A stretch of DNA of 64,000 nucleotides from a candidate division WOR-3 bacterium (GTDB taxonomy: Bacteria; Hydrothermota; Hydrothermia; LBFQ01). A program made the position numbers. The stretch is from positions 32,001-96,000 of the forward strand of contig JBDRWW010000003.1 of the NCBI GenBank assembly GCA_039802605.1, given 5' to 3'. Below are positions 30,801 to 42,800 of the stretch, in pieces; positions within the stretch are counted from its first letter, which is position 1, and each line of letters starts with the position of its first letter.

Positions 30801-33800
30801 CCGTTTTAACCAATAGGTTTATCTTTTCCTCCAAAGGTATGGAAAAGGGATCGGTTTTAATGGGTGTAATGTATTCACCCTTATGGGGTGGTTCGCTTAA
30901 AAAGGGATAGGATTTGCCGCTTATTTTAAAAGAGGATTTGGCGAATTCTATTGCCCTATCAACGGTTTTAACTATGTCGTCTAAGAAAAGGGAACTAGTT
31001 GATGCAAATCCCACGCTTCCACCTACAACAGCCCTAATTCCAATTCCCTCTTCCACCGCCTCGTCTATGGATGTAATTGTGCCGTTTTCAAGCCTTATAC
31101 TCTGCTTTGTAATCCTTACATATCTAACCTCGCCGTAATCCACACCCCTTAATCTTTCTATTGCCACTTCCATAACCTTTTCCATAACGGTTATTCTAAT
31201 GCGGTTTAACCATATACACCCTCCCGGTATTATCCGCACCAACCACCGCAAACATTAAGCCGTTTTCAGACCAAACCCCATCTAACACCCAGTGGAAAAA
31301 TGGTTCCGATTCGAGTAACTTATTCCTTTTAAAATCGTAATAATAAACCCTTTTCTTTGTACCCCCGTATATCACCCCCGTTTCAAGGGGGGATACGGCT
31401 ACGAAAAGGGAACCGAAGGTGTTTTCCTTAATCTCTCCCAAAGTTTTCCATGTTTTGGTATCATAGATTTTCAACCCCTCATCGCCTATTACAAACAACC
31501 TTCCGTTTTTAGTCCAAATTATATCCCTTACCTCCGACTGAAACCTATCAAGTATCCTATAAGGTTTCATAATCGTGGTACTCCAAATATCAACCCTGCC
31601 ATCACAAGAACCCGTTGCGAAGAATTCCCCATCCGGTGATATATCGCCCGAAAGCAAGGGGCAACCCGTTTCCGTATTGGATTCCATTGCTGTATCTTGG
31701 AAAAGGGTTATTAAGGCAACCCCTTTGTTCTGAACGGCCAATAACCTCTTTTCATCGGGAAACCATACAATCTTGTTCGTAAATGATGTGTTTTTAAACC
31801 TATAAATTTCGTTCCCGGAAAAGGTATAAATTATTACCCTATCCCCGGCAACCGCTATATACCTCCCCGAGGGGGAAATCCTAACATCCGAGATTTTACT
31901 CATACCGGCCCTAAATTTTAATTTTAAACTCGGCCCGGTATCCGACCAGATATACACATAACCCCTATTATCCGCCGTAACTATTCCCATACTTCCCCAA
32001 TCAACCGCCACTACCGGAAACATATGTGTGAATGTCCAAAGGATTTCCATTTACGCCCTCTTAAATATCGCCATAAGGGAACTCAGGGATACAAAAACAC
32101 CCAATATAAACAACGCTATCGCAAAAATCAAGGCCACCATATTTAGTTTCCCAAACTGATATACAAGTGCCCACAGGGTTATTATACTCATAAAAATTGC
32201 CGGAATTAAGGAAACAATATAGTTCCTTTTCGTTTTAAACAACCAAGCGGTTATTACGAATAAGGAAAGGGCGGCCAACAGTTGATTCGCCGCACCAAAA
32301 ACCGTCCATAGGTTATCCGCTTGTCCGCCCAATAACAGGGCTAGGGAGCATATTACGACAATGGCGGAGGAAATATAGATATTTTTCAGTCCAAAGAACT
32401 CCGTTGTTATATACCTGGCGATGCGTGTGGCCGTATCAAGGGTTGTTAGTATAAAAGCGTTTAGGACGAGTATGGCAAAATATCCCCCATAACTCCCGAG
32501 AAAAGGTGTAATATTCCCCACACCCTTACCGAATGTACCTATGGGGTTTGAAGGGTCTAAACCTCCGGATAACGACCCAACCGCTGCTATTACCAACACC
32601 GCCAAAAAACCCTCCAACAACATAGCGCCATAAGATATTTTCTTTGAATCCCTTTCCTTTGGCAATTGCTTTGCCGATGTCCCGGAGGATATTAGGGAAT
32701 GAAAGCCGGATATAGCCCCGCAGGCCACCGTCACGAACAGAAAGGGTACAAGAGGTATATCCGAAGACTTTACTGGGGGTATGTTAAAATGTTTTCCCGA
32801 AATCAATGCCCCGGCGAACATTACAAGAATTCCCCCTACAAGCAGATATGAGGATATGTAATCCCTCGGTTGCAATAGGTATTGCACGGGAATCACCGAT
32901 GCCATAAAGGAATATATCAATAGGATTAAAAGCCAGAAATGATAAGATGCTTTTATGGGAAACATTTCCCCCAAGGGGATAAGGATTATCAACCCCAGTA
33001 TACCCAAGATCGTGGAAATCAGGAGGTTTATATTGAGTTTATAGGTTAAAAAAATTAAGGCCACGGGTATAAGACCGAGGGAGGGTATTACTATATGCGG
33101 GTCTCCCACATAGGATTTCGCCGCAAAGTGCGCAAACACGGCCACTATCAAAACTAAGGCAAACCATACAAAGGCGGAAAACAAAACCCTTGCATATTCC
33201 GATACATAAATCCTTGATACCTCGGATATACTTTTCCCATCATTCCTAAGGGAAACCATCATGGAACCGAAATCGTGAACACCCCCCATAAATACGCTTC
33301 CAAAAAGAACCCAAAGAAATGCCGGAAGCCAACCCCAATATATTAAAGCCAGTGTGGGACCGACTATTGGCCCCGCCCCTGCTATTGAAGCAAAGTGATG
33401 ACCAAAGAGTACCAACCAGCTCCTTGCGGGTACATAATCCCTGCCATCGTAAAGCCTTTCGGCAGGAGTTGGGTTATCCCCAACCTGAAACACACGACTC
33501 AAAAAACCCCCGTATAATACATACCCCATTATGAGGAATAAGACACAAAACATTACAAAAACCACAAGCATAACAAAAATTCTAAGTCGGAAAATATTTT
33601 CCCCACACAGAACATTTTCACCCCTTATAATATCCGCTATGCGATTTATACCCATTTTAATTATTGGGTTAATCGTGGGGTGCTCATCCCTACCTCCAAA
33701 GGGCGGAGCCCCGGATGTTTTGGAAGTTAGGTTTAAATCACCTAAGGATTCCATAGTTAGTAAGTTCAAAGCCGTTGTGTATAACAACAAATACGCCGTT

Positions 33801-39800: not shown

Positions 39801-42800
39801 TGTTCAAGATAAGGAGATGCCCGATTTAAACGCTTTAAGGGATAGGGTAAAGGAATTGCAGGAAAAGTACGCCCTTGATGCCGGAGACCCAGAACTCAAA
39901 GGGCAACAGCTAACCGTTATAAGGGCCGACAAGGAAATAAACTGGGGAAGGGTTTTAGAGGTCATAGACGAGACGAAAAGGGCGGGTTGTAAAAGAACCG
40001 CCCTTGCGGTTATAAAGAGGAGGGGGGGAGGTTGAAGGAAAAATTTTTCACCTTTATAATATACAGAACAGGAGGTGGGACATGGCACAAGTAAGAACTA
40101 TTAAATTACCTGAGGAGAGGGAGGACCGCGCGCAGAAGAGGTTGGCGGTCTTCTTTCTATGGTCCTTGGTGGTGTTGGCGGGCTTGGCGTGGGTTATGAG
40201 GGGTCAAATAGCGGCCGCCCTTGAAGAGGCAAGACTCAGAGAAATCCAATTATTGGAAGAAAAGTTAGCCAAAAAGAAGAATGTACCCCCCAAGTTGATG
40301 AAGCAATTGGAAAAGAAAAAGGAAGAGGCCAAGAAAGAGGCAGAAAAAAAGGATGAAAAGAAACCCGGTGAACCGAAGAAAATAGATTTGCAGGCAAAAC
40401 TATCACAAACCCTGAACCCCACAATAAAACTCGGTGGTCCAAAATTAAATGTAGATATTCCGCAAAACATAAAACTTCAGATAGCGAGTACCCAAATGCT
40501 CCCCGAACAGGTTCAGGTTAAAAACATAGACTTGAACGCGGCATTGGAAACTTCCGCAAAAATAGATATACAATCCCTTGACCAATCTTTGAGCGCCGAA
40601 GCGGCGGATGTTGTGGTGGCAGTTCCGACAAAGGGCGTTAGTACGGCCGATATATTGGCACAAGAGGCCGTTCCCGCCGTATCCCTCGGTGGGGCTGGAT
40701 TTGAAGGCTCCCTTGGTGGAGGTTTGGGCCTTGGTGGTGAAGGGGGTGGAGGAGGTATAAGCTTGAGCAGTGGTGGAGGTGGCGGATTGGCCGCCGCGGC
40801 ACCATCCGTTGATGTGGCCGTACCAAAACCCGCGGCGAAGGAGATAGCCGCCCCTGCCGAACCGGTGCAGGTGAAAGGAGGTGGTGCTATTGAGATAGAA
40901 GGATGCATTCAGGGTAAGGTTGTCCGCAAGGTTAAGCCTGAATACCCTCTAAGGGCTCGTAGGGAAGGTTGGCAGGGAGTTGTGGTTGTTGAGGTAGTAT
41001 TATCTTCAAACGGTACAATCAAAAATCTTGAACTCGTCAAATCAAGCGGTTATGACATCCTTGATAGGGCTGCGATAAGCGCCATACAAGGTTGGCAGTT
41101 TTCAAGCAATGTCCCCGAGGGATGTTCCGGTAAGATAACCATGAGGTTCGTTTTGGAGTAAGGGCATGAAAAGGTATTTGATACTGTTGGCGTTTTTTGG
41201 ATTGCCCGTGCTTGGTTATGCTCAGGATCAAGGCGGTGAAATCTCCGAAGAAGAGACCGTTGTCGGTACGGCGGAATACAAGATAGATGATGCGGTGAAA
41301 CCCATTGTTGACCTCCAATTAAGGCCATTTGAACCGGTTGATAGCTTTATACTTTTAAAAGAAAAGGGTTTGGAAAAGAGGTTACCCGCGGGAATAGATA
41401 AGGAATTATCGGAAGTTGTGAAACTAAACAACCCATTCCTCAGAAGGCCGGTATATCCCGTTATGATAGTGGATAAAATAGTTATAAAACCTGGGAAATT
41501 GCCCAAGCCCGATAATTGGAAGATAGTTGTTTACAACTCGGCTGGAATACCCGTAAAAACCTTTGAAGGAAGGGGAGGGGTGCCCAACGAAATAGTATGG
41601 GACGGTATATCCGATAAGGGAGTACCCGCAATAAAACCCGGTGAGAGATTTACATATAGGATATATTTGGAGAGAAAGAGCGGGGCCAAGAGGAGGGAGG
41701 TTAGGGAAATACCCGAAATCGTAGGATTTGCCATATCCGATCCCAAAGGTGATAACATGATTTATCTAAACACCGATTATGTATTCCAACCCGGAAGGGC
41801 AAACTTGCAACCGGATGGTGAAGAGAGGATTGTGGAAATGTTAAACTTCTTAAAGGCAAAGTATAAGGGTAACGGTCCGGTGGAGGTTTATGTTTATGCC
41901 ACCAACAACTTTCTCTACGAGGATAGGGCAAAGGTTTTAAGAGAACTGATACTCAAAAACGCACCAATAGATCCGGAAAAGTTAAAGATAAATCAGGGAT
42001 ATTTTCAATCCGGAGCGAAATACGAAAGAATAGAATTGAAGTTTAGGGATTAAAATGGATAACAAGGTGGAGGTCCATCTCAAAGAACTTTTAACTTTTG
42101 ATGATGTTCTTTTGCTTCCCAAGTATAGCGAGGTTTTGCCTTCGGAGGTTATCGTTAAAAGTAGATTTAGCAGGAATATATCTTTGAATATTCCCATAGT
42201 TTCATCTGCTATGGATACCGTCACCGAGTATAGAATGGCGGTTGCCATGGCCTTAAACGGTGGAATAGGTGTTATTCACAGGAACCTTCCGCCTGAAAAA
42301 CAGGCCGAGGAGGTTAAAAAGGTTAAAAGGTTTAGGGCTTGGATGGTTATAGACCCTTATACCCTTACGGAAAAATCCACCATAGGCGATGCAAAAAATC
42401 TTATGCATACCCATAACATATCCGGAATACCCATAATTGATAATAACGGCAAGCTGAAAGGCATTATAACCAGAAGGGATATTTATTATGCGGAAAACGA
42501 TTGGGAACCGGTAATAAGGTACATGACCCCAAGGGAAAAGTTAATAGTGGCATATTATCCCATAACTTTGGAGGAGGCCAAGGATATACTTAGGAAACAT
42601 AGAATAGAAAAATTGCCCGTTATAAACGAAAGGGATGAATTGGTTGGCCTTATAACGGCAAAAGATGTTTTCAACCAAGAGGATGATGGGGATGCAAATG
42701 TGGATAATTTGGGTAGGTTGAGGGTTGCGGCTGCCATTGGGCCTTCTAAGGATTTTGAAAGGAGGGCGGAACTCTTATACGAGGCGGGGGTTGATGCGTT

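Follow-up and report, generated by a model that had tools for sequence, protein, structure and literature searches.

Genes for a type IX translocon without GldKLMN in WOR-3 bacteria, and a conserved Ton/Tol-family cassette beside one PorV-family carrier

How might type IX secretion (T9SS) proceed in an organism that encodes the translocon but not its motor? The question is raised by a locus in a candidate division WOR-3 genome (G000, completeness 90%), which lies at 33639-42053 of the window (the whole 64,000-nucleotide stretch analysed) and consists, as an earlier note had described it, of nine ORFs on the + strand, eight of which form the cassette discussed here. Bacteroidota depend on this motor to detach the loaded carrier from SprA, according to the accessible part of PMC10994853. 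The earlier note took the gene set to indicate a T9SS that is either motorless or energised by a Ton system. The first part of that reading is supported, the second, as a general statement on T9SS energy, is not; likewise the parts that it named are present, although the identity of the barrel, the limits of the cassette and the account of a second operon on contig C7, which has a receptor of its own, need qualification. No description of the cassette, or of a T9SS in WOR-3 or Elusimicrobiota, was found in the open-access literature.

The export module is largely recognizable. SprA is encoded at C4:4452-9941 (1829 aa; TIGR04189, 370 bits against a cut-off of 200), in agreement with the full-length gene noted earlier, and falls short of the model by about 500 aa. 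It is present in 147 of the 151 WOR-3 genomes surveyed; of five SprA-negative genomes that were searched for it, G162 has a fragment at a contig end and the others no clear match. The three PorV-family barrels claimed are confirmed, at C2:177748 (NF033709, 156.9 bits, cut-off 90), at C7:61669 (100.7 bits) and in the window, the last of which, at 29.8 bits, falls under the same cut-off. The E value of 5.6e-23 given for the PorV match of the C2:177748 protein was reproduced, but its 81.7 bits are below the PorV equivalog cut-off of 250; this protein is the general carrier and lacks a periplasmic extension. PorX is present (353.5 bits), as stated, and the 16 TIGR04183 proteins counted before are compatible with 46 matches at E<=0.01, at least 13 of them over the cut-off among the matches listed. 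G000 therefore has type A CTD cargo, a PorV-family carrier and SprA, the parts by which a T9SS is recognized here. It also encodes a PorE-like protein and a PorU-like protein (319.6 bits against a cut-off of 420; PorU exceeds the cut-off in the WOR-3 genomes G006 and G149), and about 5 kb from the PorU-like gene there is a weak candidate for PorW/SprE, a TPR lipoprotein at C5:42524 (33.7 bits against 250).

None of GldK, the FGE-sulfatase family, GldL, GldM or GldN exceeds its cut-off in G000. As this genome is 90% complete, the absence rests on the phylum survey, in which GldM was over its cut-off in 0/151 WOR-3 genomes, GldK in none of four, and GldL, FGE-sulfatase and GldN in none of three; weak GldM matches occur in four of the 151 (E 0.01-0.06, model positions 28-150). 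The positive control that had been lacking is provided by 61 Bacteroidota genomes, 14 of which have GldM over the cut-off, and by matches to GldL, GldN and FGE in G251; a Parabacteroides record was unfit as a Gld control. Unfiltered profiles from control Gld loci, of which our GldK profile spans the C-terminal part only, gave nothing better than E 0.005 against 4467 ORFs of G000. The best of these matches, including two to GldL, are coiled-coil proteins and were rejected as hidden Gld components. SprA-like genes without GldM are also found in Elusimicrobiota and other phyla, so that the 'translocon without PorKLMN motor' of the earlier note is more general than it stated. Ignavibacteria are mentioned in passing as having a motorless translocon in what is accessible of PMC11705866. 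Judged by sequence, SprA, PorV, PorU and CTD cargo are thus encoded without GldKLMN in WOR-3 and several other phyla, and secretion itself presumably takes place. Many genomes that lack the motor retain SprA, PorV, PorU and cargo proteins by the dozen, so that export must either be able to proceed motorless or draw on a different chain of energy.

The window operon is a receptor-less cassette of eight genes, preceded by a non-core gene (33639..34148, +) for a 169-aa lipoprotein (lipobox IVGC) that has no Pfam or NCBIfam match, only unnamed look-alikes in the Atlas, and an upstream homologue in just one of the 20 WOR-3 loci fetched for comparison. The earlier gene list (barrel, TPR, ExbB, two ExbD, TonB) is correct for those genes but omits the first and the last of the core. 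The first (34145..34594, +), in the cargo position, encodes 149 aa comprising a signal peptide and a bare T9SS CTD-like (FlgD-Ig) domain, which is matched by the C-termini of genes upstream of the barrel in 17/20 loci. Its orthologues have matches below cut-off to CTD regions, namely those of PorZ, PorU and TIGR04183, contain Big_1/invasin Ig domains, and range in length between about 120 and 2831 aa, with 1800-2800 aa the usual size outside WOR-3. In G000 and G053 the cargo is a bare CTD, and in G116 it is missing beside the barrel, so display of a surface adhesin cannot be what every cassette is for.

The barrel gene (34599..35870, +; 423 aa) is predicted to encode a 14-strand barrel of PorV/FadL fold followed by a CTD-like Ig domain (PF13860), which would be periplasmic given the even number of strands (model pLDDT 78.9). 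The model aligns with PorV 8gl6_F (Z 30.9, rmsd 3.0, 272 aligned), and to this extent the assignment to PorV, based earlier on first and fourth hits, is borne out; FadL is nevertheless tied with it (VIA Z 30.9/30.7 for PorV versus 30.6), and PorV chains rank third and fifth in Foldseek. Residues 316-420 align with 1056-1158 of PorU 6za2_B (Z 11.0, rmsd 2.7, 97 aligned). An NCBIfam scan at E<=0.05 gave PorV/PorQ and FlgD models only, and no PorP/SprF family. Next comes an exported TPR scaffold (35872..38424, +; 850 aa, TPR families), which is over the cut-off for CpoB/YbgF (TIGR02795, 182.5 bits), scores just 42 bits for PorW/SprE, and in P0161 and L072 forms a single protein with a PorV-family barrel.

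The motor genes follow. The ExbB/TolQ-family subunit (38442..39146, +; PF01618) belongs to a single clade of cassette ExbBs (UFBoot 94), apart from the C7 type. Both ExbD proteins match PF02472; alignment indicates that ExbD-1 (39148..39579, +) retains the transmembrane aspartate, and that glycine replaces it in ExbD-2 (39583..40035, +). The aspartate is present in just one ExbD in 19 of 27 cassettes, and in none of the 27 is it lost from both. The TonB/TolA-like transducer (40082..41161, +; PF03544 73 bits, TIGR01352, alignment) has one N-terminal membrane anchor, a long linker and a TonB C-terminal domain. The window operon hence contains what defines a Ton motor, with the ExbD aspartate in ExbD-1 only. 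The last gene (41166..42053, +) encodes an exported adaptor with a TonB-box-like N-terminal motif, a CTD-like Ig domain homologous to that of the barrel (hhalign 98.4%) and a degenerate OmpA-like domain; its model (pLDDT 77.7, with the N-terminal 86 residues of low confidence) finds OmpA/MotB domains and FlgD in Foldseek. In 30 of 30 aligned adaptors the GHTD loop of canonical OmpA domains, which we take to be their peptidoglycan-binding motif, is missing. The N-terminal motif may weakly be read as a TonB box: a matrix made from it places two of the six TonB-dependent receptors of G000 in the top 5%, with unrelated proteins in the top ranks. There is no TonB-dependent receptor at the window locus, all nine genes being otherwise assigned, and three genes on the opposite strand separate the locus from the closest receptor-like gene (26802-28514). 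Contigs from one RNA run cover 34097, at the 3' end of the lipoprotein gene, to about 43900, and not 32000-33867; raw RNA reads numbered just 0 and 2, and scans for promoters and terminators did no better than chance.

The adaptor occurs in all 84 WOR-3 genomes that have the full-length barrel, on the same strand within 13 kb of it in 70, and barrel and TPR genes are followed by ExbB in 17/20 fetched loci. The same order appears in records labelled Elusimicrobiota, Goldbacteria and Gemmatimonadota; in Firestonebacteria and Zixiibacteriota the cassette is split or cut. Barrels fused to Ig repeats and OmpA are seen in P0124 and P0128. SprA accompanies the cassette in 93/95 WOR-3 genomes and in 16/19 others, the former figure carrying little weight because SprA is near-universal in WOR-3. 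The adaptor is present and SprA not found in G164 and G169, both fragmentary assemblies, and in G050 and G055 the barrel-TPR and motor halves are unlinked. The motor half lies about 15 kb from sprA in G015, G040 and G050, which is not counted as evidence because central-metabolism genes intervene. A KSB1-type locus combines CTD cargo and a PorV-family barrel with a different ExbB and two ExbD-like genes.

Is the cassette then the general T9SS motor, in place of GldLM/GldKN? Such a role would fit the absence of GldKLMN, the structural homology of GldLM with ExbBD (as given in the accessible text of PMC10202324), the lack of the adaptor in all five GldM-positive genomes, and the retention of the motor where the cargo shrinks. 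It is made quite improbable by the 54/147 SprA-positive WOR-3 genomes in which the cassette was not found. These include G006 (100% complete, three contigs) and G149 (one contig), which have SprA, PorU and 48 and 82 sorting-domain matches, respectively; near-closed genomes with some 50-80 cargo matches and no cassette mean that it is not a general motor, and on this ground the 'Ton-energised T9SS' is not upheld as a general statement. The general carrier at C2:177748, moreover, has no periplasmic extension, and in other phyla the adaptor was not found in 21 of 37 SprA-positive, GldM-negative genomes. (Among these, G180 is a record titled chromosome, and the cassette of G155 is cut by a contig end.) A divergent hidden cassette in G006, G007, G004 and G149 was ruled out by reading their ExbB loci; G006 has the C7 type only, and G149 the C7 type and TolQ only. 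The only ExbB of G001 is truncated at the end of its contig. Alternatively, the housekeeping ExbB-ExbD-ExbD-TonB of the C7 type might energise the T9SS in addition to nutrient uptake, for its ExbB is found in 138/151 WOR-3 genomes, near the 147 of SprA, it is the sole ExbB in G006 and G007, and its operon also encodes a PorV/PorQ protein and CTD proteins. Both ExbB-ExbD-ExbD-TonB operons do carry a PorV-family gene, as had been pointed out, but C7 also has an unmentioned 1063-aa TonB-dependent receptor directly behind tonB, as expected of Ton uptake, and its PorV-family gene sits behind that receptor and a CTD partner, so that the C7 motor is explained without secretion. With a receptor behind tonB in G006 also, and five further receptor-like genes in G000, the wide spread of this motor is accounted for; SprA and PorV are in the lowest 6% for a box-like motif in their first 140 residues, although this is a weak test. 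We give this alternative equally little credence.

An envelope-maintenance tether of Tol-Pal-like or PorE-like kind, with the barrel as outer-membrane anchor and the CTD protein as cap, is suggested by the sister relation of the cassette ExbB to the one TolQ sampled (UFBoot 98), the CpoB-like TPR over its cut-off, the OmpA-like fold, the minimal cargo in the order of G000, and the absence from G000 of TolB over cut-off and of a Pal-like lipoprotein. We consider it improbable: the adaptor lacks the presumed peptidoglycan-binding loop, cargo outside WOR-3 is large, neither TolB nor the cassette is present in 44/151 genomes, and the two coexist in 54 of the 95 cassette genomes, on which account replacement of Tol-Pal was rejected. 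The likeness of ExbB, two ExbD, TonB-like protein, TPR and outer-membrane barrel to the parts of Myxococcus Agl-Glt (accessible part of PMC3169522), and the Big_1/invasin domains of the cargo, would suit a traction or gliding-like machine that moves a T9SS-exported Ig-repeat adhesin, by analogy with Agl-Glt and SprB-SprF. There is, however, no FHA domain, no Glt family over cut-off and no gene for cytoplasmic coupling in the cassette, the cargo of G000 is a bare CTD, and the same part of PMC3169522 holds that the Agl-Glt core complex alone is unlikely to drive motility; this reading is very improbable. Ton motors usually drive uptake, and the tie of FadL with PorV in both fold searches would allow a FadL-like channel with the CTD protein as a surface binding lid. 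That has the least to recommend it, as a plugged receptor is lacking in the cassette, sequence models favour PorV/PorQ over FadL, no catabolic or ABC genes are linked among the loci listed, and FadL channels are not known to be TonB-dependent.

What survives of the Ton link is a private Ton-family motor conserved with one PorV-family carrier and its cargo. The cassette is a Ton/Tol-family machine distinct from both Ton uptake and Tol-Pal, and its target is likely to be the outer-membrane carrier. The reading that we prefer, which we hold at a little under an even chance, has two layers: a motorless T9SS export module, and, as an accessory, a Ton/Tol-family machine dedicated to a single carrier and its cargo. 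The parts and their folds, the order of the genes, their co-inheritance and the retained aspartate are observed; each contact, and the direction of force, is our proposal. SprA would export the CTD protein and pass it to the PorV-family barrel that is its cognate carrier; the periplasmic CTD-like domain of this barrel, together with the TPR scaffold and the Ig/OmpA-like adaptor, would form a handle beneath the outer membrane. As protons flow through ExbB and the ExbD-1/ExbD-2 pair, the TonB-like protein would be driven to grip the N-terminal box of the adaptor and pull, by which the carrier-cargo pair might be freed from SprA, repositioned, or both. Evidence for a dedicated machine includes the gene order across phyla, the single ExbB clade, at least one ExbD aspartate in 27/27 cassettes, the fusions, the co-occurrence with SprA, the RNA run and the KSB1-type locus. 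To this are added the extraction of the carrier-substrate complex as the energy-requiring step in Bacteroidota (PMC10994853) and the known cargo-shuttle-PorE operons (PMC12618676), both as described in the accessible parts of these papers. Counting against it are the cargo, a bare CTD in G000 and G053 and absent beside the barrel in G116, the barrel, whose fold resembles FadL no less than PorV and whose score is under the PorV-family cut-off, the weak TonB-box reading, the small weight of co-occurrence with SprA within WOR-3, G164 and G169 without SprA, and the unlinked halves in G050 and G055.

These gene sets make the role of energy in type IX secretion testable outside Bacteroidia, and bear on the order in which translocon and gliding motor arose. 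SprA, PorV-type carriers and CTD cargo, spread over WOR-3, other FCB phyla, Elusimicrobiota, Firestonebacteria and Goldbacteria, could be far older than GldKLMN; an ancestral TonB-type motor would have pulled carrier-cargo pairs from SprA by a periplasmic handle, a design preserved in the window cassette, and Bacteroidia would later have swapped in the gliding track. We think this unlikely; if true, it would overturn the published inference that the T9SS originated within the gliding machinery (PMC12635249). The reciprocal loss of one ExbD aspartate is in addition a natural experiment on whether a 5:2 proton motor can work with a single conducting subunit.

With the Bacteroidota T9SS, G000 shares SprA, PorV-family carriers, a PorU-like sortase, PorX, a PorE-like protein and many type A CTD proteins; it differs in having no GldK/L/M/N, a shorter SprA and only the weak PorW/SprE candidate. 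Type B cargo-PorP/SprF-PorE operons, as portrayed in the accessible part of PMC12618676, similarly unite cargo, cognate barrel and OmpA-like protein, whereas the cassette has a PorV/FadL-type barrel with a fused periplasmic Ig domain and an OmpA-like domain without the GHTD loop, and adds a private ExbB-ExbD-ExbD-TonB motor and a large TPR protein. Tol-Pal resembles it in its TolQ-related motor, CpoB-like TPR and OmpA-like fold, and in that the transducer probably acts on a soluble protein of the periplasm; the cassette includes neither a TolB propeller nor a Pal lipoprotein, contains a barrel and surface cargo, and coexists with true Tol-Pal, a set of which is present in G149. The Agl-Glt core, with one ExbB, two ExbD, a TonB-like protein, TPR and outer-membrane barrel (PMC3169522, in part), is matched in composition, but the cassette has no Glt orthologue over cut-off (only the AgmX/PglI C-terminal model matched, at 19.8 bits against 40) and no FHA domain, and has a PorV-fold barrel and CTD cargo. 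The export module also resembles the translocon-only sets of Ignavibacterium and Melioribacter, reported to have SprA and PorV in the absence of other T9SS proteins, to which the accessible text of PMC11705866 devotes one sentence that gives no mechanism and does not extend to WOR-3, Elusimicrobiota or the cassette.

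The nine ORFs at 33639-42053 of the window (+ strand) are real, run in one direction and are tightly packed. Pfam and NCBIfam matches in this cassette are to a TPR protein, ExbB, two ExbDs and TonB (40082-41161, with the TonB domain at residues 262-359); no TonB-dependent receptor is encoded in it. The 423-aa product of the barrel-Ig gene (34599-35870, +) has the predicted fold of a 14-strand barrel with an Ig domain. In a Foldseek search the modelled barrel met FadL at ranks 1 and 2 and PorV at ranks 3 and 5, and VIA-align gave a Z of 30.9 for PorV (rmsd 3.0, 272 aligned) vs 30.6 for FadL (rmsd 2.2, 258 aligned), so that by predicted fold the two are tied. 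The modelled Ig domain resembles the C-terminal region of PorU (Z 11.0, rmsd 2.7, 97 aligned) and, because the strand count of the barrel is even, would lie in the periplasm. Residues about 97-140 form a long extracellular loop, modelled with low confidence and bearing a cysteine pair, which is shared by the closest relatives only. The last gene, here called the adaptor (41166-42053, +), has no Pfam match; in the model of its product a disordered N-terminal stretch precedes an Ig domain of the FlgD type, homologous to that of the barrel protein, and an OmpA-like domain. Contigs from one RNA run cover 34097 to about 43900, with none at 32000-33867, and those of a second run cover part of the same region; such contigs are no proof of transcription.

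The genome, which is 90% complete, encodes SprA (370 bits vs a cut-off of 200), a PorV-family carrier (contig C2, 177748), PorX, PorU-like and PorE-like proteins that both score below cut-off, and 46 matches to the type A sorting domain (CTD) at E<=0.01. SprA was found in 147 of 151 WOR-3 genomes, in 133 of them over the cut-off, and GldM exceeded its cut-off in none of the 151. The standard controls (14 genomes) had no T9SS, and 61 Bacteroidota genomes were therefore drawn as positive controls; in 14 of these GldM exceeded its cut-off. One of the 14, G251, was also positive for GldL, GldN and the FGE fold, none of which passed the cut-off in the three WOR-3 genomes searched (the present one, G006 and G149); GldK was not found in the four searched. 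When profiles from 11-12 control loci were run unfiltered against the 4467 ORFs of the present genome, no match was better than E 0.005, and those at that level fell on coiled-coil proteins. The suggestion of the earlier note, that a T9SS translocon exists here without the PorKLMN (GldKLMN) motor, is thus borne out, and since the motor and ring tests failed, the name 'canonical T9SS' is unfit for this system.

A similar picture is seen beyond WOR-3, in 50 genomes taken from 80 loci with PorV-like barrels, a sample of unstated completeness, biased by its mode of discovery and with loose record labels. SprA matches at E<=1e-10 occurred in 42 of the 50 (20 over cut-off), and GldM was over cut-off in none. 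The distant SprA matches are collinear, 1700-1950 aa long, with Phe at the C-terminal end, and score 300-650 bits against the WOR-3 SprA profile. In a FastTree phylogeny of SprA (45 sequences, 1370 columns; a filter at <1500 aa removed none), the five GldM-positive genomes group with Parabacteroides in a single clade, with Balneolales and Chlorobiaceae as successive sisters (support 1.0 each). Bacteroidia are nested within FCB, and together with this clade that would speak for a translocon that predates the motor, on a tree with weak deep nodes and a provisional midpoint root. The reverse order is inferred in a part of PMC12635249. As to distribution, a passage of PMC11705866 lists PorV, SprA and Plug, and no further T9SS protein, for Melioribacter and Ignavibacterium; sections of PMC11285876 allow T9SSs in other FCB phyla and deny them to other phyla, those of PMC4793230 and PMC5445135 confine the system to Bacteroidetes, and PMC6851124 in part proposes T9SS signals for Fibrobacter.

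The role of the transmembrane Asp of ExbD is established. Among 27 cassettes, related genomes not being independent, both ExbDs (window 39148-40035 and orthologues) keep it in eight and exactly one does in 19; which of them lost it varies by lineage. No cassette lacks it in both. The whole pattern suggests that the motor works and is maintained by selection, probably with an ExbD heterodimer. At its start the adaptor has a conserved acidic-V/I-x-G motif, which we take to resemble a TonB box; with a matrix of the motif, a weak test, two of the six receptors of this genome ranked 17 and 51 of 1134 and the other four far lower. Rank 2 of 1134 fell to a stand-alone 592-aa TPR protein with such a motif at its start (L155:205-1983; contig C1, 82204-83982), which may be another client of the TonB of the cassette. 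Elsewhere on C1 (L154:540-3481; 45539-48480), a 587-aa paralogue of the cassette TPR precedes a CTD-bearing protein. In the cassette cargo, Big_1/invasin Ig domains are combined with a CTD-like terminus. Its length is 1800-2800 aa outside WOR-3, but WOR-3 genomes mostly have a cargo of 270-760 aa; it is a bare CTD here and in G053, and does not adjoin the barrel in G116.

The full-length barrel-Ig gene occurs in 84 of 151 WOR-3 genomes and is always accompanied by the adaptor (84/84), on the same strand and within 13 kb in 70 and on separate contigs in the other 14. ExbB follows barrel-TPR in 17 of 20 WOR-3 loci picked to span families (two split, one at a contig edge). Records that bear the label Elusimicrobiota (L082, L085, L088), Goldbacteria (L064) or Gemmatimonadota (L067) show the complete order again, and those of Firestonebacteria and Zixiibacteriota have cassettes that are cut or rearranged; barrel-TPR and barrel-Ig repeats-OmpA fusions occur naturally. 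Two ExbB copies, the second fused to ExbD-1, are seen at L020:4679-5785, L023:9579-10673 and L049:6296-7381, and two or three added large genes, mostly TPR, lie between TPR and ExbB at L027, L028 and L043. A substitute for Tol-Pal is ruled out because cassette and TolB (E<=1e-50) co-occur in 54 genomes.

Could the cassette energise the T9SS at large, in line with the Ton-energised alternative of the earlier note? The adaptor accompanies SprA in 93 of the 95 WOR-3 genomes that have it, and full-length copies were found in 19 of 45 other-phylum genomes and five GldM-positive controls surveyed, 16 of the 19 with SprA. It was not found, however, in 54 SprA-positive WOR-3 genomes or in 21 of 37 SprA-positive, GldM-negative genomes of other phyla (in one of these the end of a contig truncates a cassette); none of the five controls had it. 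In G006 and G149, two of the WOR-3 genomes without it, PorU still scores over cut-off and CTD matches number 48 and 82, respectively. The cassette is therefore accessory and cannot be the general motor, a reading to which we leave a small chance. G006 (100% complete, 3 contigs) and G007 (100%, 30 contigs) have a single ExbB, of the type found in the second Ton operon, on contig C7; G149, in one contig, has that type and true Tol-Pal. This ExbB occurs in 138 of 151 WOR-3 genomes, and its TonB might power secretion, although we think this improbable. Both Ton operons do carry a PorV-family gene, as had been noted, but they are not alike: on C7, a 1063-aa TonB-dependent receptor comes directly after exbB-exbD-exbD-tonB, and beyond it lie genes for a CTD-like protein, a PorV/PorQ barrel and further CTD proteins, which makes this an uptake locus with surface partners. 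In the ExbB tree (45 sequences, 200 columns) the cassette sequences group as a single clade (UFBoot 94), whose sister is the only TolQ sampled (98) and which is separate from the C7 type (100). Uptake by the cassette itself, which has a TonB and a FadL-like fold and no receptor, is very unlikely.

An envelope tether would suit the OmpA-like domain of the adaptor; the GHTD loop is missing from 30 of 30 aligned adaptors, so that peptidoglycan binding is doubtful, and we rate the tether as rather unlikely. A traction machine comparable with Agl-Glt, as described in part of PMC3169522, seems decidedly improbable. The reading we favour, at a little under an even chance, is a dedicated machine that would pull on its one cargo-carrier pair through the adaptor and TPR. 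Detaching the carrier-substrate complex from SprA takes energy, as a section of PMC10994853 shows; the other CTD proteins of these organisms possibly leave SprA by slow, unpowered release.

Other loci deserve mention. In KSB1 and unlabelled records (L095:884-18700, L103, L105, L117), a second locus type combines a CTD cargo, a 630-680-aa PorV-family barrel, a long ExbB, two ExbD-like genes and a 1080-aa protein. FCPU426/Firestonebacteria loci (L066, L068, L070, L071, L073, L075, L077) hold a CTD protein, barrel-Ig, a 190-aa gene, a second barrel and more large CTD proteins, with no motor genes within them. P0124, P0128 and a set of 1000-1800-aa matches have 7-16 tandem FlgD/CTD-like Ig repeats and an intact terminal OmpA domain, and a PorV-like barrel is fused to some of them; among the Atlas neighbours of the adaptor are Spirochaetota proteins with such repeats and OmpA. 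In the window, a receptor-like gene at 26802-28514 (best match weak: copper receptor TIGR01778, 37 bits) is unlinked to the cassette, 28599-29768 encodes a 389-aa DnaA-like AAA+ protein with a C-terminal helix-turn-helix, and a V/A-type ATPase subunit C gene (43529-44512) lies directly after guaB, apart from the window's other ATPase genes.

No description of the cassette, or of a T9SS in WOR-3 or Elusimicrobiota, was found in searches of open-access main texts. None of the parts is new in itself, and for the motorless translocon there is a one-sentence precedent in the passage of PMC11705866. By analogy with the cargo-shuttle-PorE operons described in part of PMC12618676, the cassette reads as a cargo-carrier-anchor unit with a motor of its own.
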